Under the pieces are notes generated by a model. The model saw nothing but the letters and a program-made list of their open reading frames with translations. It was not told the DNA's origin and searched no databases. This document shows positions 923-19,682 of a DNA stretch of 64,000 nucleotides, in pieces. Made by a program: the position numbers and the translations under genes. Position 1 is the first letter of the stretch. Each line of letters begins with the position of its first letter. The DNA lies in assembly GCA_043818055.1 (NCBI GenBank), contig JBDRGF010000075.1, positions 10,078 to 74,077 of the forward strand. Reading direction: 5' to 3'. The DNA is from Pseudomonadota bacterium (GTDB lineage: Bacteria; UBA10199; 2-02-FULL-44-16; JBDRGF01).

Positions 923-1015
923 ATGGAAGCATTAAAAAAGGGCATTACCGAAATTGAAATCGTCACAGAAGGCTCTGAAGAAGAGATGCTTTGGGGAGTT
1001 GTTGGTGGTAAGTAA
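923..1015 (+). CDS. RiPP precursor peptide A1, 30 aa: MEALKKGITEIEIVTEGSEEEMLWGVVGGK
   Basis: Hand translated; AGGAGAGG RBS; paralog of the next ORF; directly upstream of rSAM genes; too short for the ORF track. Confidence 0.88.
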   Translation: MEALKKGITEIEIVTEGSEEEMLWGVVGGK

Positions 1016-1044: not shown

Positions 1045-1143
1045 ATGGAAACGTTAAGAAAAGACATCAATGAAATTGAAGTTGTCACAGAAGGTTCCGA
1101 AGAGGAGATGCTTTGGGGCGTTGGCGGCAGCAAGAACAATTAA
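1045..1143 (+). CDS. RiPP precursor peptide A2, 32 aa: METLRKDINEIEVVTEGSEEEMLWGVGGSKNN
   Basis: Hand translated; AAGGAGAG RBS; VTEGSEEEMLWGV identical to A1 despite synonymous codon changes. Confidence 0.88.
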   Translation: METLRKDINEIEVVTEGSEEEMLWGVGGSKNN

Positions 1144-1154: not shown

Positions 1155-1191
1155 TGTATGGGGGAGTCAAACTTGCGACTCCCCTCATACA
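1155..1191 (+). terminator. GC-rich stem-loop after the precursor genes (attenuator or mRNA stabiliser)
   Basis: TGTATGGGGGAGTC / GACTCCCCTCATACA inverted repeat; no U-tract. Confidence 0.6.
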
Positions 1192-1202
1192 TCATATCTA
1201 CT

Positions 1203-2549: not shown

Positions 2550-3564
2550 CACATTTGATTTTCTGATCACAAATGCATGCGACAAAAGATGCTCGATATG
2601 CTGCACCAATCCGCATGCCATGAATGAAATCCAGCATTTAAAATTCAATGATTTTTGTGGGGTTGTCGATTGTATCGAAAAATACTTAGAAGAAAAAAAC
2701 GAAACAGGCAACTGGGGGATTTCGGGGGGAGAACCCTTTATGTATAGTGATCATGAGGTGGGAAAAAATTATACGCTGGTTGATATTGTGGAATATCTTA
2801 GCACAAAGAAATTTATAAATAGTGTTTCCATCAGAACGTCAGGCTTCGATATAAATTCAAAACAAAAATTGATTTTTGATGCATTAGAGAAACTCAGAGC
2901 ACGCAAATTTATCACTTTTACTACTAGCTACAATTTATTTCAAAAAGGAGACATCAACGAAAGATTGAAGTGGATTTTACCAATATGGCTGGAATCTCAA
3001 GATAATCTTGAGATTCAAGTTATATATAATAAATCCAATTATCAAAAGACCTTGGATGGCTTAAATCAGTTGCTAAAGACGGCAAATTTACTTGTCGATA
3101 AATCACAGACCATAAAAATCTTGCAGGAAAGATTGCACAAGTCAAATTATTATAGCTGGTCTATCGATGGAAAGAGAGTGGATATCAAAACATACCCGGC
3201 GTATTCTCATGGGAAAATTGATGGTGAAGAGTTTTTTGAGTTCAAGACAGCAAAATGCGTTTCACTATCAAAAGCGGATTCAAACGCTGTCTTAGTCGTT
3301 AATTTTGATGGAACGCTACATCATTGTTGTAATCCGTATTATAGTTTTAAAAGACGGTTTTTTTCACCAAAGATAGAAGGTCTTTTAAGTGGAGGAATAG
3401 CATTGGAAGATATCGCCAATTTGTTTTCAGATGGTATGGAAAGGGTTCTGCTTGAGCCAAAAATAAAATATAATCTCCAGAGAGATTATTGCGATATGTG
3501 TTCAGTACTACTCTTTGGACCTGTAATTACAGCAGAAGGAAAGTTTTGTGAAAAACCAAATTGA
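2533..3564 (+). CDS. Second radical SAM protein (twitch/SPASM-like C-terminus)
   Basis: CDKRCSIC motif, SGGEP, C..VVNFDGTLHHCC and terminal CDMC. Confidence 0.8.
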   Translation: MKIKFNTFDFLITNACDKRCSICCTNPHAMNEIQHLKFNDFCGVVDCIEKYLEEKNETGNWGISGGEPFMYSDHEVGKNYTLVDIVEYLSTKKFINSVSIRTSGFDINSKQKLIFDALEKLRARKFITFTTSYNLFQKGDINERLKWILPIWLESQDNLEIQVIYNKSNYQKTLDGLNQLLKTANLLVDKSQTIKILQERLHKSNYYSWSIDGKRVDIKTYPAYSHGKIDGEEFFEFKTAKCVSLSKADSNAVLVVNFDGTLHHCCNPYYSFKRRFFSPKIEGLLSGGIALEDIANLFSDGMERVLLEPKIKYNLQRDYCDMCSVLLFGPVITAEGKFCEKPN

Positions 3565-4969
3565 ACAATTGATCAGCTATTTTCCTGGCGATTATGTCGA
3601 AGCCGCGGTTCAGCATAAGATGGTAAACTCATTCTCTTTGCTAAATGGAAAAGGAGATGGAACTGATTTCAGCGGGACAAAAACTTCTGCGAGAGTGACT
3701 TTGTACAGGGGTGGACAAAGGCTTCACCTGCCGATCAGAGAAATAAATGGCAGAATTTCATTTTCGGATTTAAAAGATAAGATTTTTAATTCTCATTTCG
3801 ATAATAAATTTGATGTATATTATAATAAAAACGGTTTTCAAAGGCTCCAAAAGAAATCTAAGAATATACTCCGAGATAAAGAGGCTTTTTACTTAACAAA
3901 ATGCAAGTTGCCTTTCAATTCAATCAACAACAACACAAAAAGAGAGATATTTGCAGATAGATTGATAAAATGTGATAGGTGTAAGCCATCCTTTGTCGAT
4001 CTGATAATTTTTTATCAGGATTCTATGACAGAAACCTGCTATTATAATTCCAACAATTTCTATCATAACAGAGTGGATAGCATGATTGAATTCTCCGGTT
4101 TTCTTAAATATGAGAGAAAACTATATCCAATTTTTTCGCACAACGAAATGGCAGGATTGGAAGTTTTGGTTGATTATGTTTTTGGGAATGGATTTGAAGA
4201 AAAGATCGAGATGATAAAAGTATTTAAGAATGCATGGGCTACAAAAATAAAGTCGGGAATCTATAATGTGATCTTGGACCCAACGCTTGGTGCGGGCTTA
4301 ATTCACGAAGCATTTGGTCATACTTGTGAGGCGGACATCTCATTCAGTAAAAATGTTAAAGGTCGAAGGGAGTTATTTGCCAAATTTAGAAATGAAGACA
4401 TCACTATTGCCGATGATCCAACAATTGCTGAAAAGGGGTTTGTCTATATTGATGACGAAGGGGTTATGGCTAAAAAAAAATATCTTGTTGAAAAGGGAGT
4501 TCTTAAATCCTGCATGCATTCAATATTTACAGCTACAAACAATAATTCAGAAGTTATGGGAAATGGCAGAACATCTGATGCGAGCCAAATTCCAATTCCA
4601 AGGATGACAAACACTTATATCGAGCCAAAAAATATCAGTCTGACAGAAATGTTCAGTTCCCTTGACAATGGATTGTATCTCAAAGGTAACATTGGAGGTG
4701 GTAAAACAAACGGAAGAAAGTTTTCTTTAAATGTTGAACAAGGATACATTGTAAAAAAGGGGAAAATAACAGGGAGCCCTATCTCAAATCTTGTCATAAA
4801 GGGAGATTGTTTTGCTACGATCAATAATATTGTCAAAATAGGAAATGATTTAACATTTGTGAAAGGTTTTGGAGGATGTTCAAAAAAAGGACAAAACAAT
4901 CTTCCAGTGTCGGGTGGGTCTCCTCATCTTATGGTAAAAAATGTTTTTGTAACGCATGTTGAAAGTTGA
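3548..4969 (+). CDS. tldD: TldD/PmbA family metalloprotease (TldD-type)
   Basis: HEAFGHTCEAD zinc motif, DDEG, GNGR..PIPRMTNTY, GCSKKGQ; GTG start. Confidence 0.88.
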   Translation: MKNQIEQLISYFPGDYVEAAVQHKMVNSFSLLNGKGDGTDFSGTKTSARVTLYRGGQRLHLPIREINGRISFSDLKDKIFNSHFDNKFDVYYNKNGFQRLQKKSKNILRDKEAFYLTKCKLPFNSINNNTKREIFADRLIKCDRCKPSFVDLIIFYQDSMTETCYYNSNNFYHNRVDSMIEFSGFLKYERKLYPIFSHNEMAGLEVLVDYVFGNGFEEKIEMIKVFKNAWATKIKSGIYNVILDPTLGAGLIHEAFGHTCEADISFSKNVKGRRELFAKFRNEDITIADDPTIAEKGFVYIDDEGVMAKKKYLVEKGVLKSCMHSIFTATNNNSEVMGNGRTSDASQIPIPRMTNTYIEPKNISLTEMFSSLDNGLYLKGNIGGGKTNGRKFSLNVEQGYIVKKGKITGSPISNLVIKGDCFATINNIVKIGNDLTFVKGFGGCSKKGQNNLPVSGGSPHLMVKNVFVTHVES

Positions 4970-4974
4970 TGTAA

Positions 4975-6948
4975 ATGAATATGAAGATACTCTTAGTCAA
5001 TCCATATTGGTCCATAGTTTCTAAATATACTCCTTATAGTTTATTGCAATTGGGGTCATATATCAATGCAAAGACAATTCATAAAGCAGAAGTGTTAGAT
5101 CTCAACATTGAATTACATGATGATATGTACAATCCTCACATTCTTATTGAAAAGGCTTGTAATTTGGTTTTGCAAAAGGATTTTGACATATTAGGGATTT
5201 CGGTCACCACTATAGACCTTCCGTTTACAGTCAGCTTTACCAAAAAATTTAACAAATTGTGCAATAAGCCAGTTGTTTTAGGAGGGATTCATGCAACTCT
5301 TGCCCCAGATGAGTTATTTTCACTTTGTCCAGTTGATTACATTGTTCGTGGAGAGGGAGAGATAACTATTTCCAACCTTCTGGATAATTTGGATATAATG
5401 AACAATAAAAATCTTAAGGACATTATGGGTCTTTCTTATCGTGATGGGAGTGCGATAGTTCACAATAATAACAGAAAAGTAATTTCCGATCTTTCTATCC
5501 TGCCTCTAGTGGATTATCAACTCATAAAACCATTGAAACATTATTTTATCAACAAACTTAAAAAAAGTTATATCATGTGCAGCAGGGGATGTGGATACAA
5601 TTGCAAGTTTTGTTCAGGCAGTCGAATATGGATGAAACAGCGCAGATTTCCCATTGATAGAATATTGAATGAAATCAAATTTCTAAAAGATTCCGGATCC
5701 GAGTTCATTTCCATCCAGGATGATTGTTTGACTATGAAGCGCTCCTGGTTTTTGGAGTTGGCTGAAGGCATTGGAAAAATAGGCATTAATTGGGGATGTT
5801 TGAGCAGGCTCGACCGCATTGATGAAGATATGCTTGATACAATGAAATCAAGCAGGTGCAAAGAGGTCTATTATGGCATAGAGTCGGGTAGCCCAAGGGT
5901 AAGAAAATTTTTGGAAAAAGGACTGATGTTTTCAAATGAAATAATTATAAAAAAAGTCAAAGACACTTTGAAAAGGGGAATTAATCCAATTTGCTCTTTT
6001 ATGACAGGCATACCGACTGAAACTGAAGAAGAGTTCAATGAAACGGTTAATCTGGCCGTTGAAATTAAAAGGTGTGGTGCAAAACCTCAACTCAACCTGC
6101 TCACTCCACTTACTGGGACTAGACTCAAAGAAGAATACAAAGACAAAATTATTAAATATGACAAGTGGGAGAAAATAGGTTTTGCAGACATTTTTGCAAA
6201 GGATCAACATTGGCTATTCAACTATCTTCTGGATGAGTTGAAGGATTATCTTCCGGACTATTATTTGTTCAAAAATCAAATGCCGCTTAATAGATTTGTT
6301 TCAAAGTATATGAAAGCCAGAAAAGAGCTTTCCCTCGAGAGCAAAAGCAACAAGATGTTTTTTCTAGATAGAACAGAAGATGAGATATTGGTGCTCAATG
6401 GTGAAAGGTTGCGTGTCGATAAAAGCAGTTTTATAGAATTAAAACTCGAATGCGGCATGCTTGATGAGTACAGAGCTCAGCGCAATAAGCTTTCTTCTAA
6501 TATCATTTTTATTCAATTTAAATATTCATCCTTCAAGTGCAATATTATTCCTGAAACAAAGGAATTTTTAACAGAAATCTTAAAAGAAATTAATTCTGGG
6601 TATCGTATAATTATATTAAATCCCCTGCCGCGTTGTTCACTGTCGGATGAAGCGACGAAACTGTTACGTGAGATAACGCTCCCTCATAATTGTCTTTGGT
6701 GTTCAAATCTTTTTTATAAATGTTTGGATAAGATAAAAATGTGCTCAGCCATAGGGGATGATGTTGAGCTCAAGGTTCCATTTGAACACATAGATAGCAG
6801 GAATAGAATATATCGCTATTTTGTAAAAGAAACTTTGGATAAAAATATAATCAGTGATAAAAAGTGTAGTGAATGTTCAATGCAACGAGATTGCACTATG
6901 CTTTGCATAGGTAGAGGTGATCGACAAAACAATGAGAGTTTTGCATGA
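4975..6948 (+). CDS. Cobalamin-dependent radical SAM enzyme (class B methyltransferase-like) with Cys-rich C-terminal extension
   Basis: B12-binding N-terminus (LGGIHAT, GEGE), SRGCGYNCKFC, GIESGS; C-terminal CLWC and CSECSMQRDCTMLC. Confidence 0.88.
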   Translation: MNMKILLVNPYWSIVSKYTPYSLLQLGSYINAKTIHKAEVLDLNIELHDDMYNPHILIEKACNLVLQKDFDILGISVTTIDLPFTVSFTKKFNKLCNKPVVLGGIHATLAPDELFSLCPVDYIVRGEGEITISNLLDNLDIMNNKNLKDIMGLSYRDGSAIVHNNNRKVISDLSILPLVDYQLIKPLKHYFINKLKKSYIMCSRGCGYNCKFCSGSRIWMKQRRFPIDRILNEIKFLKDSGSEFISIQDDCLTMKRSWFLELAEGIGKIGINWGCLSRLDRIDEDMLDTMKSSRCKEVYYGIESGSPRVRKFLEKGLMFSNEIIIKKVKDTLKRGINPICSFMTGIPTETEEEFNETVNLAVEIKRCGAKPQLNLLTPLTGTRLKEEYKDKIIKYDKWEKIGFADIFAKDQHWLFNYLLDELKDYLPDYYLFKNQMPLNRFVSKYMKARKELSLESKSNKMFFLDRTEDEILVLNGERLRVDKSSFIELKLECGMLDEYRAQRNKLSSNIIFIQFKYSSFKCNIIPETKEFLTEILKEINSGYRIIILNPLPRCSLSDEATKLLREITLPHNCLWCSNLFYKCLDKIKMCSAIGDDVELKVPFEHIDSRNRIYRYFVKETLDKNIISDKKCSECSMQRDCTMLCIGRGDRQNNESFA

Positions 6949-9900
6949 AAAGGATATATACAGAAAGATTCTACATTCTTTCGGTTGCTGTCATCATCAT
7001 TCTGGCGGGTATCTATTACTCCCTAAGAATCCCCATAGAGTTATATCCCAACGCCACTCAGACGAAAATAACAGTCCAAACTCATTATAAAAGTCTATCT
7101 CCTTTCGCCTTTAAAGATCGTTATGGAGATTTGATAGAAAAAGAATTGAATGGAGAAGGCGAATTTGAAGAGGTAGATTGTAAATATCAATACGAATATG
7201 CAATTTGCAGGGGAAAGTTGCCGTTCGGTTCAGATGATCATGTAATTTTGGAAAGGGTAAAAAACAAGCTTGAACCAATTTTTTTGTCATTTCCCGCTGA
7301 ATGGAAAGAGGCAGAGGTAAACTTTGGCGATTCCAACAAGGGAGTTCTTATAATAGCATTATACTCAAAAAATATACCTCTGAAAAAGGTCTATGATGAG
7401 ATATCGCCATCGATCAATTCGTTCCTTTCGACTCATCCCGATGTCAGTGTCGGTGAAGTTTCAAATCTTTTTGAAAAAAAGATTTCAATAAGCATAAAAC
7501 CAAATGTTGAAAATAAAATCACCAAAGAAATGATCTTTAATCAACTTAGTTCTTCAAACAATGATATTAAAACCATTGGAAACATTTCCATTGAAGGAAA
7601 TATTCTTTCAATAGAAGCAAGTTCAAAATTGATAGAAAGCCTTGATGATCTCGAAAATTTCAAGCTTTTGACCAAACAAAATGAGATACTAAAGCTGAAA
7701 GATATCGCCGACGTAAAAATCATTCCAGTCGAACCTAATGAATTGTTTAAAGGAAATAATCAAAATTCACTCATAGTGTGGGTTGCTCCTCAGGCAAAGG
7801 CTAACCTGGTTAATTTTAGCGATTCCATCGAATCCAAAGTCAAAGCAGAGATTAAACGTTTCAACGGCGAAGTTACTGCTCAAACGCTTTTGAATCCGGC
7901 ATCTTTTATCAGGAACGCGGTTAAAGACATTTTGTATTCATTGATTATCAGCGTGATACTCTCTGGAATTGTCGTCTTCTTGTTTTTGGGATCCTTGAAA
8001 TATTCCACAGTTATAAATCTAGTCATGCCCTTGTCGTTATTTGGCACTATTTTATTCATGTATATCTTAGGTATAGAAGTGAACCTCATTTCAATGGGGG
8101 CAATGGCCATTGCAATAGGCATGGTTGTCGATGCATCTATAGTGGTAATAGAAAATATTTTTAGGCACCTGCAAAATACGCATCCGAAGGATTATTCCGA
8201 GAAACTTGGAATCTATGTCAAAGCTGTATCAGAAGTTAAAGGTGCACTTTTTTCGTCAACGATAACGACCATATGTGTTTTCGTGCCACTGCACTATGCC
8301 TCTCCTCTTGTCAGCGCCATCTTGGGAGATGTTGCGACGGTGATGACGCTCAGTCTTTTTCTTTCCATGATAATGGCCATCTTTTTTGTTCCTTCAATCC
8401 TTTTGTGGATAAATCCAGATATCACGCAGATGGAAAATTTAAAGCACAAGTCCAATTTTCTAAATAGATGTTTTACAAATATTCAAAAATACTACTCAGA
8501 GGCAGTTAAATGCTTTATCACAAATAAAGTCATCAATGTCCCGATTATAATAACATTGTTAATCCTCTTTTTACTATCTTTATATTTGGCTGTTTACAAG
8601 ATTGACCACGAACTTATAGCAACACCGACATCAGATATAATTGTTTTTCATAGGGGTAATTCAAAAGACGTTGACAGCATTGCTACGCAGGAAAAGGATT
8701 TTCACGATACTGAGCGGGAGGTGTTTAAGCTAACATCTGACTATGTTGATTTTACGCTTACCGTCTTGCGCAAGGATTTAGCGATGATGTTGTTGCACAT
8801 CAAAAATGAAAAATACAAAGAAACATTGAAACAACTTCTCATAAAAAAATATAAGAGCTCAGAAAAATATGAATTCAAGGTAGTCGATTGGGTTCCAACG
8901 CAATTTGAAATACCAGACCCACCACAGATGAAGGTGTTGATCGGCGGTGCAAGCCCAGCTGAAAGCAAATTGATTCAGGCTGAGGTGGAAAAATTCATTT
9001 TAGCAAACAGCAAAACGGTAAGGTCTTATTCCATTCCGACAAGCCTAACTTCGGATGAGATAATCGTTGATATAGACGTTGAAAAACTGGGTTATCAAAA
9101 CAGAATTCACGGAACATCTTATTCAAAAAAACAAATCCTTGATATCTTGAATTTTCACGCGAAAGAAAAATATTTAAGGCACATGAAGTTTGATGGAGCA
9201 AAAACAGCGGTATTTCTTGAATCGGACTATCCCAAATTAAAGAGAGAAAAGATTTCAAGCTTTAGCATACCGTTTGGGAACGGATCGCTAACGCTGGATA
9301 AAATCGCAGACATAAAATTAGTCAAATCAGATAGTGAGATTCACAGCTACAATGGTGGTATGCAATATGAAGTAGATGCCTTTTTTTCGGACAAGGGCTT
9401 CACATATTTCGATGAATTTTCAACAACATTAATTCATAAATTTGGTAAAGAGAAAATATCAACACATTATCCTTATGGACTGATAAACGATACAATAAAC
9501 AAACTCTTTTGGGCATTGGCTGTTTCCTGTTTGCTCGTATTCCTTGTGGTTTTTTTACAATACAGGAACATCTATTACACCTTAATAATATTGATGGCAA
9601 TTCCTACTAGCGTGATTGGAGCTCTCATTTCATTATATATATTCAAATCAACTCTTGGCATGAACGCGCTTTTGGGTCTCATTTTGCTTTCAGGCATAAG
9701 TGTCAACAGCACAATCATCATCATAGATTTTTACGATAAAATAGGCTCTGACGACATCGCTGACGGAATTGTTCAAACGATGAACTTGAGATTAAAGCCA
9801 ATTTGCATGACTGCCTTTACCACTGTCATAGCAATGGTACCCATCGCTGTAAAATTATTCAGCGGTTCAGAGGCGCTGCAGCCGCTGGGAATAACGATAA

Positions 9901-9998
9901 GTTGCGGATTATTTGTTTCAACACTATTGATACTCTTTATCGTTCCCTGGCTACTCTATTGTTTGCCGAAGAAGAGAGTTGGGAAATCACAGTTATGA
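6945..9998 (+). CDS. RND efflux permease (AcrB/CusA family)
   Basis: 1017 aa, GMVVDASIVVIENI, RLKPICMTAFTT, two periplasmic domains and TM blocks. Confidence 0.9.
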   Translation: MKRIYTERFYILSVAVIIILAGIYYSLRIPIELYPNATQTKITVQTHYKSLSPFAFKDRYGDLIEKELNGEGEFEEVDCKYQYEYAICRGKLPFGSDDHVILERVKNKLEPIFLSFPAEWKEAEVNFGDSNKGVLIIALYSKNIPLKKVYDEISPSINSFLSTHPDVSVGEVSNLFEKKISISIKPNVENKITKEMIFNQLSSSNNDIKTIGNISIEGNILSIEASSKLIESLDDLENFKLLTKQNEILKLKDIADVKIIPVEPNELFKGNNQNSLIVWVAPQAKANLVNFSDSIESKVKAEIKRFNGEVTAQTLLNPASFIRNAVKDILYSLIISVILSGIVVFLFLGSLKYSTVINLVMPLSLFGTILFMYILGIEVNLISMGAMAIAIGMVVDASIVVIENIFRHLQNTHPKDYSEKLGIYVKAVSEVKGALFSSTITTICVFVPLHYASPLVSAILGDVATVMTLSLFLSMIMAIFFVPSILLWINPDITQMENLKHKSNFLNRCFTNIQKYYSEAVKCFITNKVINVPIIITLLILFLLSLYLAVYKIDHELIATPTSDIIVFHRGNSKDVDSIATQEKDFHDTEREVFKLTSDYVDFTLTVLRKDLAMMLLHIKNEKYKETLKQLLIKKYKSSEKYEFKVVDWVPTQFEIPDPPQMKVLIGGASPAESKLIQAEVEKFILANSKTVRSYSIPTSLTSDEIIVDIDVEKLGYQNRIHGTSYSKKQILDILNFHAKEKYLRHMKFDGAKTAVFLESDYPKLKREKISSFSIPFGNGSLTLDKIADIKLVKSDSEIHSYNGGMQYEVDAFFSDKGFTYFDEFSTTLIHKFGKEKISTHYPYGLINDTINKLFWALAVSCLLVFLVVFLQYRNIYYTLIILMAIPTSVIGALISLYIFKSTLGMNALLGLILLSGISVNSTIIIIDFYDKIGSDDIADGIVQTMNLRLKPICMTAFTTVIAMVPIAVKLFSGSEALQPLGITISCGLFVSTLLILFIVPWLLYCLPKKRVGKSQL

Positions 9999-11233
9999 AA
10001 ATGTTAGGCGCATTAAAATTGAACAGAAATTTTTGGCTGCTCATAACAGGCCAGTTCACATCGAATATCGGCAGCACAATTTCAGAGCTGGGAATATCTT
10101 GGCTCGTCCTCAAGGAGTACTCGATCACAGAGTTTACCATATTTTCCGGAATATGCTTGCTGCCAAGGGTTATTCTGACTCCTCTGTTAGCCCCCCTCTT
10201 TGAAAGGGTGAATAAGAAGTTGCTGATGATCTTGTCTGATATCGTAAAAGGCATCTGTTTGTTTACAATGTATCTGCTCTTTCTCACGAAGGGTCTCAGA
10301 TACGAGTATATCGTTTCCTTGATGTTTGTTCACGGACTTGTCGGCGTTTTGTTCAGCATTGCGGTAGAACCTCTGTATTACGACATATTATCGTTGGACG
10401 AATATCCAAAGGGGACATCGCTCAGAGAATTATTTGGCCGCATGGCGCCTCTCATCGGACCTTCAGCGACTGCCATAATAATGGCAATATCCGGAAACAT
10501 CGGTCTTTTGCTTCTTATAGATTCAATTACTTTTTTTGTCTCAGCCCTTTGTATCGTTTTTATCCGCTTGCATATGAAAACAGACTTTGAAAAAACGCCC
10601 AAGACAACAGGGTTTAGTTCGTATGCTAAAAATCTGTTTCAGGGGTTGGCGTATGTCAGCAAAAACAAAAATCTGTTGATGCTCTTTACGTCGTTGATAG
10701 CGATTGGGTCTATGTTGGGGGTTTTGGCTTCAATAATGCCGATATACATACGGGATCATCTCTCTTCGGGAGTTGTTGGGTTGAGTATTTTTCAGTTGAT
10801 AGGTAATGCAGGCGCTATAATCGTAGCTATCGGATTGACGATTTGGCAGTACAAAAGCTCACATTCGAGTATATATTCCTTTGGCGTTGGCATCATTGGC
10901 ATTGTCGTCATGGGGCTGGTCGTCACTTCAAATTTCTATGCAGCGACATTCATATACTTTTTGCTGCAGGTGACGATCACCATCGCAAGCTATGCGGCAA
11001 AAATCCTTTTACGGGAAAATATCGAAGATGACTACAAAACCAGGGCATATTCGTTGATGTCCATGGAGCAGCTGTTGCAACCGATAACCATCTCTCTGTC
11101 AGGGCTCGCAATAAAAGCAATCGGGATTGATAGCATCGTGATGATCATAGGTATTACTATAATGATAATAGGGCTTGTTTTGTTGGTGATAAATTTTAAA
11201 ACGAGTCTTGTTTTTTCCAGAATTTTGGACTGA
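9995..11233 (+). CDS. MFS transporter (macrolide-efflux/DHA3-like)
   Basis: NRNFWLLITGQFTSNIG start, ~12 TM; ATGA overlap with the RND stop. Confidence 0.85.
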   Translation: MKMLGALKLNRNFWLLITGQFTSNIGSTISELGISWLVLKEYSITEFTIFSGICLLPRVILTPLLAPLFERVNKKLLMILSDIVKGICLFTMYLLFLTKGLRYEYIVSLMFVHGLVGVLFSIAVEPLYYDILSLDEYPKGTSLRELFGRMAPLIGPSATAIIMAISGNIGLLLLIDSITFFVSALCIVFIRLHMKTDFEKTPKTTGFSSYAKNLFQGLAYVSKNKNLLMLFTSLIAIGSMLGVLASIMPIYIRDHLSSGVVGLSIFQLIGNAGAIIVAIGLTIWQYKSSHSSIYSFGVGIIGIVVMGLVVTSNFYAATFIYFLLQVTITIASYAAKILLRENIEDDYKTRAYSLMSMEQLLQPITISLSGLAIKAIGIDSIVMIIGITIMIIGLVLLVINFKTSLVFSRILD

Positions 11234-11249
11234 AATCCAGGATTCTGGA
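11216..11249 (+). promoter_or_regulatory. Paired 14-bp palindromes (putative bEBP enhancer/UAS), operon 2
   Basis: TCCAGAATTTTGGA (11216-11229) and TCCAGGATTCTGGA (11236-11249), 20-bp period. Confidence 0.75.
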
Positions 11250-11352: not shown

Positions 11353-11510
11353 ATATATTTCAAAAAGTTAAGCAACAAGTTGTAATAGAGTGCGATAATG
11401 GTGGGGTAATATAAAGTTACGTAATGAAGTTTTTATATTCAAATTGAAATTGAAATTTATTTTCTAATGAAACATGACTTACCGTAATGATAATCAATGG
11501 TAAGAGGCAT

Positions 11511-12731
11511 ATGGTAAATAATAAAAACCTTTTACAGATATCCTACTTTATTAATCAATTAGGTACTTATACAAGCTATCTTGCCATCATTGCAATAGCT
11601 CGGGAACACAATAATTCTATAAATTCTATTGCTATGGTATTGGGTGCTTCAGCGGCAGGGACAATGGTTGGGTGGCTTTTGACAATGAAATATCTTAAAA
11701 ATGTGCACGCAAAACTTCTCCTTTCGTCATCGTTGATATTGTCAGGTTTGATGATGGTATCAATTTTATGTCTGGTTAATTGGTGGCTAGTTGTTGCTGC
11801 TTTTTTTGTGTTAGGAATGTGTACCAATACCTACATGTCATCATTCTATACTTTAATTCCCAGGATGATCAAAAAAACAGATGTGCCTAATATTAATCAG
11901 AACATTCAGATATTGTCTCAATTAGCCATAGTTATAGGTGCGATTTTGGGCGGCATTTTGTTAGATCGGTTTGGGTTTAGGCTTCCGCTATTTGTTGATA
12001 TTATTTCTTATTTATTAGTTGGGGTTGTTTATATGTGTCTTTCCCATAATAGATTTGTAATTTTATCAGCAGAGAAAGCGAATGATAATACGAAAGACCA
12101 AGAAGTGGTACGTCCAAAATGTCCATTTCAAAGGACATTGTTATTTTCTCCATTGGTGTTGGCTTTTCTGGTGGCTTTTGCTGCAGGTGCATATAATGTG
12201 ATTGAAATTCCATTTTTCACCGATATTTTAGGGTTGCCCTATCGCTACATTGGATTTTATTTTTCAATTTCGGTATTGGGAATTCCAGTTTTTCATGCTT
12301 TGGTACGTAAAAAGATGTTGCAAATGGAGTCGCTGCGATCCCTGTTTATCGGTATTGCATTAGGTGGTTTGGTTTATTTAGTATGGGGTATGCAGAGCAG
12401 CTTATGGATAACTGGTCTTTTGTTAATTTTATTCAGCCTCTTTCAATTAGTTATATTCACTTCAGTGAATAATTATCTACATGCCCATGTATTGGAAGAT
12501 AATAAACTTCAAACGGTTTTTTCAACTTTGCAATTTGGGAGACGTGTGGCAGCTCTGCTGGGTAAATTAGCGATTCCCTTTATTGTAGGTTTTGCAGGAG
12601 AAAAATTTTCTTTTTCAGTGCTAGGTGTTATTATGATAATTGGATTGATTGTTGTTTTGATAACCAAAAGAGTGATAGAAGGAAGTATGAGTATTGTTGG
12701 AGATTTACAACAAAATGCCGCCGAATATTAA
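11511..12731 (+). CDS. MFS transporter
   Basis: ~12 hydrophobic segments, GGILLDRFG motif; start after AAGAGG RBS (alternative 11487). Confidence 0.8.
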   Translation: MVNNKNLLQISYFINQLGTYTSYLAIIAIAREHNNSINSIAMVLGASAAGTMVGWLLTMKYLKNVHAKLLLSSSLILSGLMMVSILCLVNWWLVVAAFFVLGMCTNTYMSSFYTLIPRMIKKTDVPNINQNIQILSQLAIVIGAILGGILLDRFGFRLPLFVDIISYLLVGVVYMCLSHNRFVILSAEKANDNTKDQEVVRPKCPFQRTLLFSPLVLAFLVAFAAGAYNVIEIPFFTDILGLPYRYIGFYFSISVLGIPVFHALVRKKMLQMESLRSLFIGIALGGLVYLVWGMQSSLWITGLLLILFSLFQLVIFTSVNNYLHAHVLEDNKLQTVFSTLQFGRRVAALLGKLAIPFIVGFAGEKFSFSVLGVIMIIGLIVVLITKRVIEGSMSIVGDLQQNAAEY

Positions 12732-12750: not shown

Positions 12751-12831
12751 ATGAAGCAAATGGATTTGCTTGGATTGGACAACATTGAAATTCAGCAAGA
12801 AGGATGTTGCCCTCAGGGAATTGACGGATAA
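12751..12831 (+). CDS. RiPP precursor peptide A3, 26 aa: MKQMDLLGLDNIEIQQEGCCPQGIDG
   Basis: Hand translated; strong AGGAGGAGGT RBS; GLDNIEIQQEG matches the A1/A2 leader; followed by hairpin, methyltransferase and rSAM. Confidence 0.82.
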   Translation: MKQMDLLGLDNIEIQQEGCCPQGIDG

Positions 12832-12864: not shown

Positions 12865-12902
12865 TTATCCGGGGGATCTCATTGCTTTAGTCCCCCGGAT
12901 AA
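12865..12902 (+). terminator. Stem-loop after precursor A3
   Basis: Perfect 12-bp stem TTATCCGGGGGA / TCCCCCGGATAA; no U-tract. Confidence 0.6.
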
Positions 12903-12925: not shown

Positions 12926-13936
12926 ATGAATCCTGTAAGTCAGATGAGAAGTTGGATTAATTCTATGCACATTGCTAAGGCTGTTAATATTGGTGTTGAG
13001 GTGGGATTATTCGGTGTGATTGCTGAAATAAAATGTCCAACAACAGTTCAAGAACTAGCCAGGCAAGCTTGCTGTGATCAGGGATATGTAGAATCCTGGA
13101 TACATGTTATGCAAGCGGCAGGAATTATTGATGTTGATCAAAATGGTCATCTGTCGTTTGTTAGTGACTGGAAGGAAGCCCTTACAGATCGAGATAGTGA
13201 TAAATATGTGCCGCCGATGATGGAATGTCATTTCGCTATTGCAGATACCTATCCGAGATTTGCAAAATTTTTTAGAAATGGAAATTGCATGCATTCAAAT
13301 GAATTCAGTGAACCACTGCTGGTCGGTATTGCTGCGGATGCAGTGCGATTTGCAAACTATTTTTTGCATGTAGCTGTGGATAAGATTCCAGATTTGAAGC
13401 TAAAACTGGAAGAAGGAATAGATGTTTTAGACGTGGGTTGTGGTGGCGGGCAATTTCTTTCAAAAATAGCAACACAATTTCCAAAGTCGCGCTATGTAGG
13501 TATCGACCCGTTAGATAAAGTTATTGATATGGCTAGGGAGGAGGCCAAACATTATAAAGTAGAGAGTAGAGTAGATTTTATTGTCGGTTGCGGTTCCGAA
13601 ATCAAAAAGGAATGTGCTGATTTAATAATTCTTAATGAAGTACCTCACGAAATGGATGCTAAAGTAAGACAACCGGTGCTGGATGCTTGTTGTAAAGCAT
13701 TGAAAAAGGATGGTCTTTTGTTTCTGGTTGATATTTTGGCCCCCGAAAATGCCGGGGATTATGTACGGCCTAATTTCTTATTATCATCACTAGTTCAGTT
13801 TTTTGAAAAACCATGGGGTTCAAAATTGTTGACATACTCAGAATTGAAAATCTTAATTAGAAATGCAGGTTTTTCGGATTTGACACACTTGGTGTCAGCA
13901 GATGATGTAGTTGTCGCATATACAAAACCCATATAG
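12926..13936 (+). CDS. Class I SAM-dependent methyltransferase with N-terminal winged-helix domain
   Basis: VLDVGCGGG motif I, GID, ALKKDG; N-terminal wHTH/dimerisation-like region. Confidence 0.85.
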   Translation: MNPVSQMRSWINSMHIAKAVNIGVEVGLFGVIAEIKCPTTVQELARQACCDQGYVESWIHVMQAAGIIDVDQNGHLSFVSDWKEALTDRDSDKYVPPMMECHFAIADTYPRFAKFFRNGNCMHSNEFSEPLLVGIAADAVRFANYFLHVAVDKIPDLKLKLEEGIDVLDVGCGGGQFLSKIATQFPKSRYVGIDPLDKVIDMAREEAKHYKVESRVDFIVGCGSEIKKECADLIILNEVPHEMDAKVRQPVLDACCKALKKDGLLFLVDILAPENAGDYVRPNFLLSSLVQFFEKPWGSKLLTYSELKILIRNAGFSDLTHLVSADDVVVAYTKPI

Positions 13937-13944: not shown

Positions 13945-15177
13945 ATGAAAAAAAATTATCATAATATTTTAGTTGATGGAAAAAAAATTCGTTTTTATCC
14001 CGATGAAATGTTATTTTATAAAGGCAGTTCATTTCCGAAGGATGTGGATAAAGATAGAAATGTGAGGCCATCCGTTTGTAAATCGGTAAAGATCGCAAAC
14101 AGCAGGAAACTACAACTGGCGTTGACAATCACTAAGAGCTGCAACATGAAATGTACATATTGCTATGATAAGAAAAATATGAATATTTCTTCTAATTCGA
14201 AAAATATGCATTTTAGTACACTATGCGATGCAGTGAATAAGTTTTGTAATAGCAGGATTGGTAATTACAATATACATTTCATAGGTGGAGAGCCGCTTTT
14301 ATGTCTGGATTTAATCAAACAAACTGTAGATTATTGCAATAAGAAGGCTGCAATTGATAGCTCGGTATTTACATATAGTATTTCGACTAACGGTACAATA
14401 ATTGACAAAGCCATAGCAAAGTATTTTTCCGAAAATAAAATTAAAATAAGATTAACCTTTGATGGTGTAGAAGAATCTCAGAATGTCAATCGACCGATGC
14501 GCAATCGGGAGCAGAGCTTTTCTCATGTGGTACGATCGTTATCAAATCTAAGAAATGCAAGTTGTGATTTTAGTGTTATATCTGTACTTCATCCCAATTT
14601 TCTTCATAAAATGCTTAAAGCTTTTGAAAATATAATTCAATACAATCCAAATGCGATAAAATTTGTTCCTCTAATAAATATAGATGCGCTTGGATGTAAG
14701 TATGTCAGTGATCATAGTGTCATGTTTGCAGAATCTCTTCGGAATATCGCTAATCAATTGATCAGTAGAAAAGATGAAAAAACAATTATGAAAATTAAGA
14801 ATATAAGCGTGTATTTGCCTTATATTCATAATCGTATAGCGAACATCAAGGGGTGTATTGCAGTTAATAAACAATCATATGCAGTGAATGTAGATGGTTC
14901 TGTGTATCCATGCTCAACCTTTGTTGGTATAGATACTCATCGTTTGGGGATGATAAATGATTATGAACTCAATCCTAATTCCATAAAATGTGAATCAATA
15001 ACGACGAGATGTTTATCCTGCTGGGCACGAACATTATGTCCTGGAGTATGTGCTTATACTGCCGATAATAATTCAGCATGCTCATCAGCAATGAATTGTG
15101 AGTTTATAAAAGGAGAGATTACTGTTGCTTTGGAAGTATATAGCAAGTTGTATCCTCATAAAATTAGAAGGGAGTGA
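13945..15177 (+). CDS. Radical SAM/SPASM protein (anSME/ranthipeptide-maturase-like)
   Basis: CNMKCTYC, FIGGEPLL, STNGT, SPASM C..VNVDGSVYPC and CLSCWARTLCPGVC..C. Confidence 0.88.
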   Translation: MKKNYHNILVDGKKIRFYPDEMLFYKGSSFPKDVDKDRNVRPSVCKSVKIANSRKLQLALTITKSCNMKCTYCYDKKNMNISSNSKNMHFSTLCDAVNKFCNSRIGNYNIHFIGGEPLLCLDLIKQTVDYCNKKAAIDSSVFTYSISTNGTIIDKAIAKYFSENKIKIRLTFDGVEESQNVNRPMRNREQSFSHVVRSLSNLRNASCDFSVISVLHPNFLHKMLKAFENIIQYNPNAIKFVPLINIDALGCKYVSDHSVMFAESLRNIANQLISRKDEKTIMKIKNISVYLPYIHNRIANIKGCIAVNKQSYAVNVDGSVYPCSTFVGIDTHRLGMINDYELNPNSIKCESITTRCLSCWARTLCPGVCAYTADNNSACSSAMNCEFIKGEITVALEVYSKLYPHKIRRE

Positions 15178-15186: not shown

Positions 15187-16371
15187 ATGAATAACCTAAT
15201 AAAAAAAGCATTTCAACTTTGCTGTTTTTTAATTATCATACTAATACCATTTTATATTCAAGCGGATCAAAATATTACAATAGCGCTGGTGAATAATTTT
15301 TCGGATTTTAGATCTCCATGTGGTGATCCTAAAGGAGAAAACTTTTTGAATGCTTTGAATTTAGCATTGGAAGATTTTTTAAAAGATCATAAAAAATATT
15401 CAGATCAAATAATACTTAGAAAATATGATTATGGTAATTCACCACTTAATACGGAACGTATTACATTAGAAGCTGTTCGCTCCGATGCAGTAGCATTAAT
15501 TGGATATCCATGCTCTAGTTTTGCTCTTCTTGCTGCTCCAATAGCTGAGGCGCACAATGTTGCTATGATTACGCCATCGGCTACAATTGATTCATTAACC
15601 GAGAGTCGTGAATATGTATATCGCGCTTCATTTAGGGATGAAGATCAAGCTAAAGTTATGGCGGAATTTCTGGCAAATGATCTGGATAAGAAAAAGGCTG
15701 TAGTTATTGTTAATCAGAATTACCCATATTGCACTAATTTATCAGAGCAATTCCAGCATTATTTTAAAAAATATGGAGGAAAGATTGTAAAAGTGTTTAA
15801 CACGCTTTCGAGCCAAAAAAGCTATAATAAAGAAGTAAATGAAATGAATCACTTATCATATGATGTAGTTTTTATTCCTAATCATGAAATGGAGAGCGCT
15901 ACTATGGTTAAAGAAATATATAATTTGAGTATGGAAACCACTGTTGCTGGTGGAGACGGATGGGGGAATTTGTATGGGTATATTTTTCCTGCTATAGTTG
16001 GAAATAAAAAAATTGATGCGTATGCAATTGCTCATTGGAATCGTGATTCTGTTGACACTAGTTCAAAAGAATTTCAGAAAAGGTATTATAATCGTTTTGG
16101 ATTTTATCCAAACGATAATTCAGCATTAGCTTATGATGCTATGAGTCTGCTTTTACATGCAATATCTAAGGCGAAAAAAATAAATAGGAAAGAAATCAAC
16201 GCAGAGCTCAAATCAATCCGGTCTCATTTCGGTGTAACTGGGAGATTCTCTTATAATCGAGGTAATGGAACGCCTTCAAAAAATGTTTATATAGTAAAAT
16301 ATCCTCAACCCAATTTGTCTCATGAAGGTGATCGTAGATTTGAGCATTACAAGAGTGTTATCGTAAAATAA
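15187..16371 (+). CDS. Periplasmic binding protein (LivJ/branched-chain amino acid-binding family)
   Basis: Signal peptide; ALIGYPCSS, ITPSAT, GGDGW, ALAYDA, GVTG motifs; no ABC permease or ATPase nearby. Confidence 0.85.
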   Translation: MNNLIKKAFQLCCFLIIILIPFYIQADQNITIALVNNFSDFRSPCGDPKGENFLNALNLALEDFLKDHKKYSDQIILRKYDYGNSPLNTERITLEAVRSDAVALIGYPCSSFALLAAPIAEAHNVAMITPSATIDSLTESREYVYRASFRDEDQAKVMAEFLANDLDKKKAVVIVNQNYPYCTNLSEQFQHYFKKYGGKIVKVFNTLSSQKSYNKEVNEMNHLSYDVVFIPNHEMESATMVKEIYNLSMETTVAGGDGWGNLYGYIFPAIVGNKKIDAYAIAHWNRDSVDTSSKEFQKRYYNRFGFYPNDNSALAYDAMSLLLHAISKAKKINRKEINAELKSIRSHFGVTGRFSYNRGNGTPSKNVYIVKYPQPNLSHEGDRRFEHYKSVIVK

Positions 16372-16372
16372 T

Positions 16373-18154
16373 ATGCAGCTTAAATTGAGTCATAAAATAA
16401 ACTTCTATTTTATTTTAATCATGCTTCTGGTGACGCTATGTTCTGTTGTATTTATTTTTTACATGGCAAAAGTTGAACGCAGTAAGCAAATCGACATGGC
16501 GGTTTCTAAAATGAAAAATATAGCTGCTATTGAATCAGAAGATATTATTGCTCAAATTCTTTTTCATTCATACTCGTCACTCGATCTAATAAGTAAAAAA
16601 ATTCTAGAAGAAAACAAAAATATATTTGTTGATATTCGACTTAATGATTTTGTTACAGGAAATGAATTGAAATATAAATATTGTATTCCTGATAATAATG
16701 GAGTGTGCTACAACAGGGATGATGATGTGCTTCAATTCGTATATTCCTTGAATTATGGAGGTAAGGATTTAGGAAGCCTCATCATGGCACAACAGATGGG
16801 TTCTTTCACTATGCTGATTAAGCCATCAGTATCAGTAATTGTATTATTTGCATCCTTGGTAACAATAGCGATGCTCGGAATGTTTATGTTCTTTATCAGA
16901 AAAAATATCAGTCAGCCAATCAATATATGTATTCGATCATTTTCAGAAATTAAATCTGGGAAGAGAAAAAATATTCCAAAAATGAATACTCGCGATATGA
17001 ATATACTAGTTGAAAATATTAATTCACTTATGGAAGATTTAGGAATATTTCAAAAAATTGCTGAAAGAAATACACATTTAGCCGCCATAGGACAAATATC
17101 ATCCCACGTCGCACACGATATGCGATCGCCGCTGTCTGTCATACAGGGATATCTGCGGGGAAATCAAAAAAACATGAAACTTCTCGAAGCAGCAAAGGGA
17201 AGCGCAAATAAACTGAATAACATGGCCGATGAACTATTGGATTATGCCAAGGCCTCGAAGATTGAGCCGGTTGCAACATCGTTAAAAAGCCTCGTTGAAA
17301 CCACCGTCAGCAAAGAGGTTAAAAATATCGCCGATGAAAAGGGTGTAAAGCTTATTTATGATGTGAGGGATGATGTTGTTGCTAAGATAGATCATTACCG
17401 AATGGAACGTGTCCTGACCAACCTCATCACGAACGCCGTTCAGGCGATTGATGCGGAATCAGGTGAGGTAAAAGTTTCTGTTAAATCAGACAACGAAAAT
17501 CTCAAAATAACAGTTACAGATAATGGCAGGGGAATAAGCAAAGAAGATCAGAAAAAGATTTTCGATAGCTTTTTCACAAAGGGAAAGATGAGAGGGACAG
17601 GCCTTGGGCTCTCATATTGCAAAAACGTCATAGAGGCACATGGGGGCGCTATTGCAGTAGAGAGTGAAGTTGGAAGAGGAACAGAGTTTTCGATTAATAT
17701 TCCATCTTGTATTACAACACCACATGCCACATGCTACATACCACATGCTGTCCCTAGCCATCAGACATCAGCGGTCAGCGGTCAGCCGACAAAAGGCGAG
17801 TTGGACTCGGATAACGACATCCTCGTCGTCGATGATGATGTGGGAATAATTTTAATATGGTGTGGCCTGATAGAGAAGAAAACAGGAAAACCGCCCATAA
17901 CCGCAAAGAGCCCTGAAGAGATGATGAAAGCCAAAATCGATTACAGCAGGGTATCAAAGGCGATTGTTGACTATCAATATGAGGGAAGTAAGCTCACCGG
18001 CCTCGATGTCGTACAATTTTTGAAAGAGAAGGGCGTGCAGGTGATCCACATGTGCACGGGGATGTATCACGATGAAGAATTGCAATCGCAGGCGAGAAAG
18101 TTAGGCGTTGCTTCGATCATACCTAAGCCTATTAGCGCCGATACGAATATTTGA
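16373..18154 (+). CDS. Membrane hybrid sensor histidine kinase (TM-periplasmic-TM, HisKA, HATPase, REC-like)
   Basis: AHDMRSPL H-box, NLITNA, DNGRG, GTGLGL, C-terminal ILVVDDD receiver. Confidence 0.9.
   Translation: MQLKLSHKINFYFILIMLLVTLCSVVFIFYMAKVERSKQIDMAVSKMKNIAAIESEDIIAQILFHSYSSLDLISKKILEENKNIFVDIRLNDFVTGNELKYKYCIPDNNGVCYNRDDDVLQFVYSLNYGGKDLGSLIMAQQMGSFTMLIKPSVSVIVLFASLVTIAMLGMFMFFIRKNISQPINICIRSFSEIKSGKRKNIPKMNTRDMNILVENINSLMEDLGIFQKIAERNTHLAAIGQISSHVAHDMRSPLSVIQGYLRGNQKNMKLLEAAKGSANKLNNMADELLDYAKASKIEPVATSLKSLVETTVSKEVKNIADEKGVKLIYDVRDDVVAKIDHYRMERVLTNLITNAVQAIDAESGEVKVSVKSDNENLKITVTDNGRGISKEDQKKIFDSFFTKGKMRGTGLGLSYCKNVIEAHGGAIAVESEVGRGTEFSINIPSCITTPHATCYIPHAVPSHQTSAVSGQPTKGELDSDNDILVVDDDVGIILIWCGLIEKKTGKPPITAKSPEEMMKAKIDYSRVSKAIVDYQYEGSKLTGLDVVQFLKEKGVQVIHMCTGMYHDEELQSQARKLGVASIIPKPISADTNI
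17714..17790 (+). repeat. Heptamer tandem repeats in the kinase interdomain linker
   Basis: CACATGC-type then CAGCGGT-type 7-mers, in frame (TPHATCYIPHAVPSHQTSAVSGQP). Confidence 0.65.
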
Positions 18155-18177
18155 ATTCGCTGAGATGGGAGGCAAAG

Positions 18178-19584
18178 ATGAACAAAGATTATACGATACT
18201 CTGTGTTGACGATGATGAGAATTTTCTTGTTCAGCTGGAGAGTATATTTGCGGATTACACAGTTTTCAAAGCGACATGCATGGATGATGCCCTGTCGATC
18301 ATAGACCGGAACGATATCAATACAGTTCTATTGGACATCAGCCTCAACGGCGAGGATGGTCTGGATGGGTTGAACCTGATTAAAAAAAGAAATTCGTTCA
18401 TCGATGTCGTGATGGTGACAGGCCATAGGGACACCGAATATATAGTGAAGGCGATTCAAAGCGGCGCGAGCGATTATGTGTTGAAGCCTGTGGATCAGGG
18501 AGCGTTGCTCGCGTGCGTGGAAAAATCGAAACAATCCAAAAAAGAAAAGGAAAAATATAATGCTCTGCTCTGTGAGTTGAATTCAGCGGATATCGCTTCG
18601 AGGATTGTCGGCAGGAGCGCGGAGCTCTCAAAAATTCTGAATATAGCAAAGAAGGTGAAGGGACATCACAGGGCAAACATCCTGATCGAAGGAGAGAGCG
18701 GCACGGGAAAGGAACTCCTGGCGCGCTACATCCACAGGCTTGAGGAGAATACAAGGCGACCGTTCATTGCGATCAATTGTGCTGCTATTCCGGACAATCT
18801 TATAGAATCAGAATTGTTTGGCCACGAAAAAGGAGCTTTTACCGGTGCGATTGGCAAGAAGATAGGGAAATTCGTTCTTGCTGACAAAGGTGATATCTTC
18901 CTTGATGAAATCAGTTCACTAAAACCTGATCTGCAGGCAAAATTATTGCGCGTGTTTCAGGAAAAGGAATTTTGTCCCCTTGGCGGCAACGATCCAGTGA
19001 AATCGGATTTCAGGGTGATCGCCGCGACCAATGAAAATCTGGAGGAGCTGGTGAATTCAGAAAAGTTCAGGCTCGATCTCTATCATCGCATGAAGATCGT
19101 CAATCTCTACATGCCTCCACTTCGCGACCGGAAGGATGATATAGAAGAGCTTGCTCAACATTTCCTCAGAAAATATTCAGATGGGAAAAGGGGTTTGAAA
19201 ATTGCAGATAAAGCAATCGCAATATTAAAGGAATATTCCTGGCCCGGAAATGTGAGAGAACTGGAAAATATAATACACCGGGCAATCGTCCTCGCTGAGG
19301 GCTATATGCTTTCGGAGAAGGATTTTTCGCATTTGCTAACCCCTTCCTCAGCCTGCATCAATGAAGGGCAGTCCACGCCCTTTATACAATTGTTTTCGGA
19401 GATATCGCCCAAACTCTCCGGCAATGTGATGCCGCTTAAGGATTATGTCATGAAGGCCGAGACCGAATATTTAAAAGAGGTGCTCGATCTCAAGGCCGGC
19501 AACAAAGACGAGGCAGCTGTTTCTCTCAAGATGAGCCGTTCGAGTTTTTATTCAAAATTGAAACAATGCGGTTTTTTAACATGA
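18178..19584 (+). CDS. NtrC-family sigma54-dependent response regulator (REC-AAA+-HTH)
   Basis: LCVDDD receiver, GESGTGKE, GAFTGA, FLDEI, WPGNVREL, C-terminal Fis-like HTH. Confidence 0.95.
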   Translation: MNKDYTILCVDDDENFLVQLESIFADYTVFKATCMDDALSIIDRNDINTVLLDISLNGEDGLDGLNLIKKRNSFIDVVMVTGHRDTEYIVKAIQSGASDYVLKPVDQGALLACVEKSKQSKKEKEKYNALLCELNSADIASRIVGRSAELSKILNIAKKVKGHHRANILIEGESGTGKELLARYIHRLEENTRRPFIAINCAAIPDNLIESELFGHEKGAFTGAIGKKIGKFVLADKGDIFLDEISSLKPDLQAKLLRVFQEKEFCPLGGNDPVKSDFRVIAATNENLEELVNSEKFRLDLYHRMKIVNLYMPPLRDRKDDIEELAQHFLRKYSDGKRGLKIADKAIAILKEYSWPGNVRELENIIHRAIVLAEGYMLSEKDFSHLLTPSSACINEGQSTPFIQLFSEISPKLSGNVMPLKDYVMKAETEYLKEVLDLKAGNKDEAAVSLKMSRSSFYSKLKQCGFLT

Positions 19585-19682
19585 ATTGATTATCTTTTAG
19601 TTTATCGCCACTTTTCGTTGCATTCCCTTTTACAGTTAGCTAAATGGAATTGATCACAATTTCAAAACATAGGAGGGCATCG

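Follow-up and report, generated by a model that had tools for sequence, protein, structure and literature searches.

A kinase-coupled orphan binding protein and two co-regulated sigma-54 operons form a candidate autoinduction-like circuit in a diderm bacterium

The subject of this analysis is a 64,000-nucleotide stretch, hereafter the window, of contig JBDRGF010000075.1 (assembly GCA_043818055.1) from a bacterium of the lineage UBA10199, in which three successive genes encode an orphan binding protein of the periplasm, a histidine kinase of the hybrid type and a sigma-54 activator of the NtrC type. The sequence gives good support to the view that the binding protein is a receptor coupled to the kinase and that two sigma-54 operons, one of which contains the regulators themselves, are regulated together; going further, we lean slightly toward a loop in which the operon makes, exports and senses a small signal of its own, thus switching on both promoters, P1 and P2. 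An earlier note on this DNA had proposed an autoinduction-like loop of this kind, with a product of the short peptide A3 as its signal. Gene order, promoters and receptor-kinase coupling speak for the loop; the identification of the signal with the intact A3 peptide and the generality of the feedback have fared less well.

The genes in question lie on the plus strand. A major facilitator superfamily (MFS) transporter, the putative signal exporter (11487..12731; Pfam), is followed by A3 (12751..12831), a 26-aa acidic peptide and putative precursor with a strong ribosome-binding site (RBS), a leader-like DxLxL motif and Gly-Cys-Cys near its end, and by a 13-bp stem-loop without a T run (12865..12902). 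Then come a winged-helix plus class I methyltransferase (12926..13936; domain matches), a radical S-adenosylmethionine enzyme (rSAM) with a Cys-rich C-terminal part and PapB as its best NCBIfam match (13945..15177), the LivK-fold binding protein with its hydrophobic N-terminus (15187..16371; Peripla_BP_6, PF13458, 1e-36), the kinase with sensor, HisKA, HATPase_c and C-terminal receiver (16373..18154; Pfam) and the activator with receiver, Sigma54_activat and HTH_8, a Fis-type helix-turn-helix (HTH) (18178..19584; Pfam). The open reading frame (ORF) coordinates agree with the gaps of 8, 9, 1 and 23 bp that had been described from methyltransferase to activator, the last being counted from the kinase end to the ATG at 18178, which has an RBS (an alternative activator start is the TTG at 18151), and because the intergenic gaps are short we infer that one transcript reaches from the transporter to the regulators. 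Upstream on the same strand, the precursor-like peptides A1 (923..1015) and A2 (1045..1143), both with the leader motif IE[IV]xxEG, precede operon 1 (1158..11233), the putative output, which encodes an rSAM/SPASM protein, a second rSAM, TldD, a B12-rSAM, an RND pump and an MFS transporter.

The binding protein is an orphan at every level that was searched. No ABC permease or ATPase was found among 32 ORFs scanned with Pfam within 1-41957, as the earlier note had held, and LivH/M (PF02653) had no match in the whole genome, which is 93.6% complete (a control search was positive in 12 of 14 genomes); nor did the genome yield a second LivK-type binding protein save a weak match, a 656-aa lipoprotein. 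The fold is that of LivK, with 3td9 and 4gnr as top Foldseek matches (template modelling score 0.77-0.79). Relatives were collected by similarity alone, from 93 genomes of the same phylum, a species-wide pattern scan and 401 Bdellovibrionota genomes. In a tree of 60 proteins a 100/100 branch stands between permease-linked LivK and the kinase-linked ones, which comprise the window receptor, its four closest relatives, a group around G008 and a Bdellovibrionota group. On the kinase-linked side a sensor kinase lies directly downstream in 33 of 34 loci, the 34th being a contig end, and LivH/M in none; among the other LivK loci LivH/M is present in 33 of 40 and a kinase, as assigned by programme, in one, to which inspection by eye adds two further kinase-linked loci in a small separate group. 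These loci come from related genomes and are hence not independent, and 20 of the 33 downstream kinases had themselves built the sensor profile; 30 of the 34 loci were also matched with the window kinase alone, and in Bdellovibrionota the nine loci that score above a clear gap, all absent from both profiles, have the kinase in 9/9. (The tally leaves out L117-L122, duplicates of L041, L045, L043, L040, L039 and L036, as well as L049, L050 and L057-L059.) The receptor gene is thus coupled across genomes to the gene of a kinase with a periplasmic sensor; this co-occurrence supports the proposal that the binding protein serves as accessory receptor of the adjacent kinase. Membership in a LivKHMGF importer (HAAT), and with it a transport role, was rejected, since LivH/M was not found in the 93.6% complete genome and occurs in 0/34 related loci. 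In the profile search the closest group is followed in rank by proteins of 730-770 aa that have two binding domains in tandem (P0008-P0015). A metagenome scan with close alignment returned only three loci at 28%, with transporter-type context in the one examined; a scan of viral sequences for receptor relatives gave no match, and the phylum of L032 (4 genomes) held no further relatives.

Two perfect sigma-54 (-24/-12) motifs occur in the window, where 0.06 would be expected: P1 (846..860), which precedes operon 1, and P2 (11337..11351), which precedes the operon holding the regulators. Upstream of each, again on the plus strand, stands a pair of TCC-N8-GGA palindromes spaced 20 bp apart, likely activator sites, at 735..748 and 755..768 for P1 (-111 and -91) and at 11216..11229 and 11236..11249 for P2 (-121 and -101), the first P2 palindrome overlapping the 3' end of the operon-1 MFS gene. 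The genome (2.93 Mb) has five such tandem pairs, two of which sit 60-140 bp before P1 and P2 (about 0.005 expected), and the other 36 of its 38 strict sigma-54 sites have no tandem pair upstream; a narrower form of the palindrome occurs seven times, four of them inside P1 and P2. A tandem palindrome on C92 has no strict sigma-54 motif behind it. All the elements of enhancer-dependent promoters are at hand, namely the -24/-12 motif, paired palindromes about 80-150 bp upstream, an activator with GAFTGA and a genomic rpoN. Because the tandem pair precedes only P1 and P2 among the 38 strict sites, a single activator likely controls both operons, and the promoter layout supports placing the regulators downstream of one promoter of their own predicted activator, with operon 1 sharing the design. 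The earlier suggestion that these regulators activate operon 1 finds backing in this shared design of promoter and palindromes, although, paralogous activators being closely alike, another of them might bind.

The kinase retains His248 and two membrane helices, and the activator retains D53, Walker A and GAFTGA. The sensor was modelled as a single PDC/Cache-type domain (predicted local distance difference test 83) and, as a model, resembles WalK (Z 10.7, root-mean-square deviation 2.9 over 114) and CitA (Z 9.8); the ESM Atlas gave it no sure family, with CHASE8 and sCache as leads, and a word search with the sensor region found the window's own protein only. Among kinase-linked loci the sensor halves are homologous and a Cys pair is nearly invariant. 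GC content at third codon positions (GC3) is 0.22-0.31 from the MFS gene to the sensor, A3 aside, and 0.46-0.52 for the kinase core and the activator, so that the switch falls within the kinase gene itself (its sensor half has 0.27 and its core 0.46). The core is 63-67% identical to the kinases of modules C73 and C99 of the same genome, to which the N-terminal halves are not alignable, and DNA similarity to the paralogous kinases begins at about 17075, where GC3 rises. Since the GC3 switch and the start of similarity coincide inside the kinase, the input part looks exchangeable, and input modules reaching from exporter to sensor domain appear to have been grafted onto a resident kinase core and activator.

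What precedes the receptor changes from locus to locus in a way that would suit signal synthesis. An enzyme lies directly upstream of it in 29 of the 34 kinase-linked loci: 18 short rSAMs, mostly behind an EamA exporter (five of the 18 assigned by shared motif alone), three sets of methyltransferase plus rSAM as in the window, three GNAT proteins, three FAD monooxygenases, two of them with LysE, one methyltransferase plus SDR and one hydrolase. Receptors fused to such enzymes also occur, four rSAM-receptor and two monooxygenase-receptor proteins, each with an internal hydrophobic segment and one of the fused monooxygenases being named kynurenine 3-monooxygenase in the source annotation; P0019, P0023, P0024, P0051, P0026, P0045 and L129 may be either real membrane-spanning fusions or the outcome of lost stops. 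Within the phylum (93 genomes), the three enzymes that match the window rSAM best adjoin receptor and kinase, in G086, G014 and G008, where a methyltransferase and, between methyltransferase and rSAM, a frame of 50-60 codons are present. These frames align with A3 at DxLxL and Gly-Cys, that of G014 lacking an in-frame ATG; an A3-like ORF 5' of the methyltransferase was not found in any of the three, the peptide lying 3' of it there. In G008 a sigma-54-like motif precedes the methyltransferase. The peptide of G057, which has no adjoining rSAM, lacks DxLxL; its locus (L089:8579-15527) holds, in a row, NtrC, a 44-aa lipoprotein-signal-like peptide, GNAT, amidohydrolase, receptor and kinase. A Cys near the peptide end, a feature of all modules, is no more than suggestive because its background frequency is high (24 of 76 RBS-led small ORFs, or 20 of 72 minus the four module peptides).

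Residues of the receptor were mapped onto E. coli LivJ through shared motifs. The LivJ contacts C78/S79 (C109/S110 in the receptor), T102 (T133) and Y150 (Y181) are kept, E226, which in LivJ holds the ligand's amino group, is replaced by D257, and the side-chain pocket is altered, with Y202 changed to His, L77 to Pro and a four-residue insertion in a loop. Ser79 and Thr102 of LivJ make polar contacts to isoleucine in docking, as given in the available text of PMC6983066. This amino-acid site is kept by all receptor subgroups, including those of Bdellovibrionota modules that have no peptide ORF, and for this reason an intact crosslinked peptide fits less well; the kept backbone residues, together with relatives that use peptide-free enzymes and amino-acid-type exporters, favor an amino-acid-like product, which on sequence grounds seems at least as likely a ligand as the intact peptide. 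The candidates would accordingly be such a product or a very short Cys-initiated fragment, and a signal consisting of the whole A3 peptide is doubtful. The idea of an exported A3-derived peptide as signal thus keeps its basis in the row of A3, enzymes and exporter and meets its difficulty in a receptor with the alpha-amino-acid site of LivJ.

The self-made-signal loop might run as follows. The rSAM and the methyltransferase would modify A3 at Cys, yielding a product derived from Cys whose free end resembles an alpha-amino acid, be it a peptide trimmed to a short form or a modified amino acid that has been excised, and this product would leave through the MFS transporter; the sole protease in the cluster is the TldD of operon 1. 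The signal would close the LivK-fold protein, which would then dock on the small PDC sensor of the kinase, and phosphate would pass from His248 of the kinase to D53 of the activator. The phosphorylated activator would bind the paired palindromes and open P1 and P2, and its action on its own promoter P2 would constitute positive feedback.

Several observations weigh against this loop, and we gather them here. About eight other sigma-54 sites in the genome also have related palindromes in front of them, and the paralogs differ very little, the kinases around the His and the activators in the HTH; given this likeness and these palindromes, another activator could drive P1 and P2, and cross-talk is possible because the cores and activators resemble one another so closely. 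A sigma-54 loop requires a basal supply of its regulators, for which no source was identified, sigma-70-like sites numbering 71 against 69 expected (the sigma-70 and terminator scans gave counts at chance level). In contigs of one RNA run 23 of 30 bins are covered, evenly and with genes outside the cluster included. The word search found no close homolog of the window rSAM, with matches at only 21-25% and the best at 25%; the closest methyltransferases of the phylum (46%, G014:C92 and G009) are found on short contigs that carry neither receptor nor kinase, in G008 the kinase is not followed by an activator, and the closest receptors (P0002-P0005, 49-54%) are known here as proteins only. Receptor and kinase stand without an evident synthase in G084 and L130, as do family-5 receptor-kinase pairs in G058, G026 and G014:C86, and the retained alpha-amino and alpha-carboxylate contacts of LivJ fit an ordinary amino acid equally. 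Among the Bdellovibrionota modules, no peptide lies between sites and exporter in any of six examined, the exporters are of EamA or LysE type, which tells against a whole A3 peptide as the signal, and no canonical sigma-54 motif precedes the module's own operon; for lack of that motif, positive sigma-54 feedback is not general.

The Bdellovibrionota versions nevertheless carry regulator sites of their own. In six of nine loci a palindrome TGAGAC-N4-GTCTCA, paired 20 bp apart and then followed by a -35-like TTGAC, precedes the exporter gene, which supports, at the level of sequence, the presence of regulator sites before a module's own operon. A sigma-54-like motif one base short (GG-N9-GC) follows the NtrC gene in seven of the nine loci with sequence there (L031, L033, L034, L041, L043, L046 and L047); a genome-wide comparison of N9 with N10 spacing in five Bdellovibrionota genomes gave 26 against a control of 6 and 44 against a control of 11. 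Six loci run on into conjugation genes, which in L033 are TrbC, TraG P-loop, TrbL and TraE by Pfam. TGAGAC-N4-GTCTCA sites also occur before conjugation genes of Bdellovibrionota elements.

Among the competing accounts, the sensing of nutrients or of a host deserves the most attention, unlikely as we hold it to be: the receptor would read an ordinary environmental amino acid, A3 and its enzymes would be cargo and the feedback would only amplify. The kept backbone contacts, the amino-acid transport receptors that are the nearest folds and the receptor-kinase pairs without synthase are all compatible with it; known kinases stimulated by substrate-binding proteins (SBPs) mostly read nutrients, as far as the available text of PMC8050422 goes, and sigma-54 is used for natural-product genes in Myxococcus according to the portion of PMC7910581 at hand. 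It sits poorly, though, with the changing enzyme set directly upstream in 29/34 loci, with receptor subgroups that track the type of enzyme or peptide, with the fusions of receptors to enzymes and with a side-chain pocket that differs from that of LivJ. We give little credence to the idea that the mature A1/A2 product made by operon 1 acts as inducer, or that A3 does so when matured only by operon-1 enzymes. A mature product acts as inducer in nisin-like autoinduction, and IE[IV]xxEG is common to A3, A1 and A2 and occurs in no other RBS-led ORF of the genome, with TldD being confined to operon 1; yet relatives that have the receptor, the kinase, the methyltransferase and the rSAM possess no close TldD (0 of 92 other genomes at E 1e-50), and BLASTP gives no alignment of A3 with A1.

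It is comparably improbable, in our judgment, that paralogous activators form a common pool into which the kinase feeds, P1 and P2 answering several modules in the way that parallel Vibrio receptors converge on LuxO. The paralogs have kinase cores 60-67% and activators 55-65% identical and a near-identical His region, related 13/14-bp palindrome pairs occur at C3, C16, C35, C38, C40, C73 and C88, and the modules C42 and C35 lack an activator next to them; the variant TCC-RRRATYYY-GGA is specific to P1 and P2, however, being in tandem nowhere else, and the activator is encoded 23 bp past the kinase. Least credible of all is that the small peptides are kinase-modulating small proteins, such as MgrB, or tiny lipoproteins instead of signal precursors. 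Peptides of G008, G086 and G057 do begin with basic residues, turn hydrophobic in the middle and carry a Cys late, resembling lipoprotein signals, and G057 pairs its peptide with different enzymes, but A3 is acidic and has no hydrophobic stretch, and the DxLxL motif goes with the rSAM.

The loop favored here invites comparison with known systems, among which SBP-stimulated sensor kinases are an established class (PMC8050422), although in the available text of that source the only Peripla_BP_6 protein named as a signalling partner is that of the archaeal chemoreceptor BasT. Literature searches, with subscription papers and supplements outside their scope, gave, among the papers listed, no matching published system with this combination. 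Closest in design is ScrABC of Vibrio parahaemolyticus, one operon with the signal-making ScrA, the orphan binding protein ScrB and a membrane transducer (parts of PMC4488946 and PMC8050422); the receptor here is Peripla_BP_6 instead of SBP_bac_3, the transducer a histidine kinase with a sigma-54 activator instead of a GGDEF-EAL protein, and the enzymes are an rSAM and a methyltransferase, with a peptide gene and an exporter next to them. In LuxP/LuxQ, too, a hybrid kinase responds to an autoinducer through a periplasmic binding protein that acts as its accessory receptor (PMC8050422, in part), with a sigma-54-dependent regulator, LuxO (by its NCBIfam name), downstream, whereas LuxP belongs to Peripla_BP_4 and the sensor of LuxQ is double-Cache-like, against Peripla_BP_6 and one small PDC domain here, where moreover synthase and receptor share an operon. 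Orthology was rejected, the activator scoring 293 bits on LuxO (cut-off 800) and the kinase 91 on LuxQ (cut-off 1200). In AioXSR, TorT/TorS and XylFII/LytS a binding-protein gene adjoins a sensor-kinase gene, AioS having an sCache-like sensor and aioX being induced by its own ligand (portions of PMC8050422), but these systems read environmental compounds and have no signal-making enzymes. The agr system also places peptide, processing and two-component genes behind a regulator-activated promoter, with a second target promoter, and its hypervariable region in agrB, agrD and agrC resembles the swapped input half seen here (PMC10482373, in part); it differs from the present case, which has a periplasmic binding protein, sigma-54 and a diderm host and lacks AgrB and a LytTR regulator. 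An agr-type identity was rejected, as no AgrB or LytTR Pfam domains occur among the cluster ORFs and the kinase has two helices where AgrC is multi-pass. Ranthipeptides (PapB/SCIFF) come to mind since PapB is the best NCBIfam match of the window rSAM; clostridial members are tied to quorum-sensing (agr) gene expression and, within the available text of PMC8102284, their clusters have no dedicated receptor, and A3 differs from them in containing only two Cys, which are adjacent. PapB-type membership was rejected, 179 bits falling short of the cut-off of 340. By analogy, the cassette is a variant of SBP-kinase signalling alongside ScrABC, LuxPQ and AioXSR.

The same genome contains four more modules with orphan family-5 binding proteins and small Cys peptides of 16-62 aa (L001-L004). 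In C73 these are MFS, methyltransferase, receptor, kinase and NtrC; in C99, B12-rSAM, a 62-aa peptide, methyltransferase, receptor, kinase and NtrC; in C42, MFS, B12-rSAM, an 18-aa peptide, methyltransferase, receptor and kinase; and in C35, MATE, methyltransferase, B12-rSAM, a 16-aa peptide, receptor and kinase. Three of the four have a sigma-54 site and two an adjacent NtrC gene, hairpins resembling the A3 stem-loop follow the peptides of three other modules, and the C73 peptide candidate lacks an RBS and overlaps the MFS stop. The promoter regions of C73 and C35 are near-identical.

A wider proposition, which we advance tentatively and would not rate as probable, is that these modules belong to a widespread, undescribed class of quorum-sensing systems in diderms, in which LivK-fold or family-5 receptors and Cys-pair PDC sensors, served by interchangeable synthases, have been joined to kinase cores and sigma-54 activators already resident, in the manner of agr pherotypes, controlling the production of peptides that are ribosomally synthesized and then modified post-translationally (RiPPs) here and conjugation in Bdellovibrionota. 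The synthase sets would be peptide plus rSAM plus methyltransferase, short rSAM plus EamA, a kynurenine-monooxygenase-like enzyme plus LysE, and GNAT plus amidohydrolase, and the signal of the window would be a Cys-modified, amino-acid-like autoinducer derived from a ribosomal peptide. Peptide-derived autoinducers are a hallmark of Gram-positive bacteria; if true, a RiPP-derived signal acting via periplasmic receptor, kinase and sigma-54 activator would extend them to diderms and offer a role for many orphan RiPP cassettes. The several enzyme sets per receptor group would predict a family of undiscovered amino-acid-like signals, and the setting is notable in that one small genome has five such modules and that Bdellovibrionota versions precede conjugation genes. 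Should the ligand be a plain amino acid, the result would still be a LivK-kinase three-component system missing from the available text of the 2021 review.

The organism is a diderm by its BamA, a genome search for LpxC giving no match, and the stretch is present in groundwater and biofilm metagenomes. Within operon 1 (window 4975-9998), the B12-rSAM has ApyD as its best NCBIfam match (157 bits, cut-off 750), and the RND pump has no fusion or outer-membrane protein adjoining. In the same direction and 59 bp past the activator, 19644-23281 encodes three P-loop paralogs and one membrane protein with genome-typical GC3, and the minus strand of 26940-41957 holds a Pel-type polysaccharide cluster (PelF, PelG, GGDEF/GAF, TPR; Pfam). 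Elsewhere in the genome, G000:C38:165-6900 (minus strand) combines a sigma-54 site, an rSAM and about seven Cys-rich precursor-like ORFs, with a family-5 binding protein and a methyltransferase at the contig end, and G000:C3:80-4960 (minus strand) a Cys peptide of 24 aa with its hairpin, an ORF of 93 aa, three rSAMs and a transporter-like ORF. Sigma-54 promoters with related palindromes stand before two operons, one curli-like and containing CsgG (G000:C40:24991-28800, L009), the other encoding alanine racemase and ATP-grasp enzymes (C60:35843-44750, L006).

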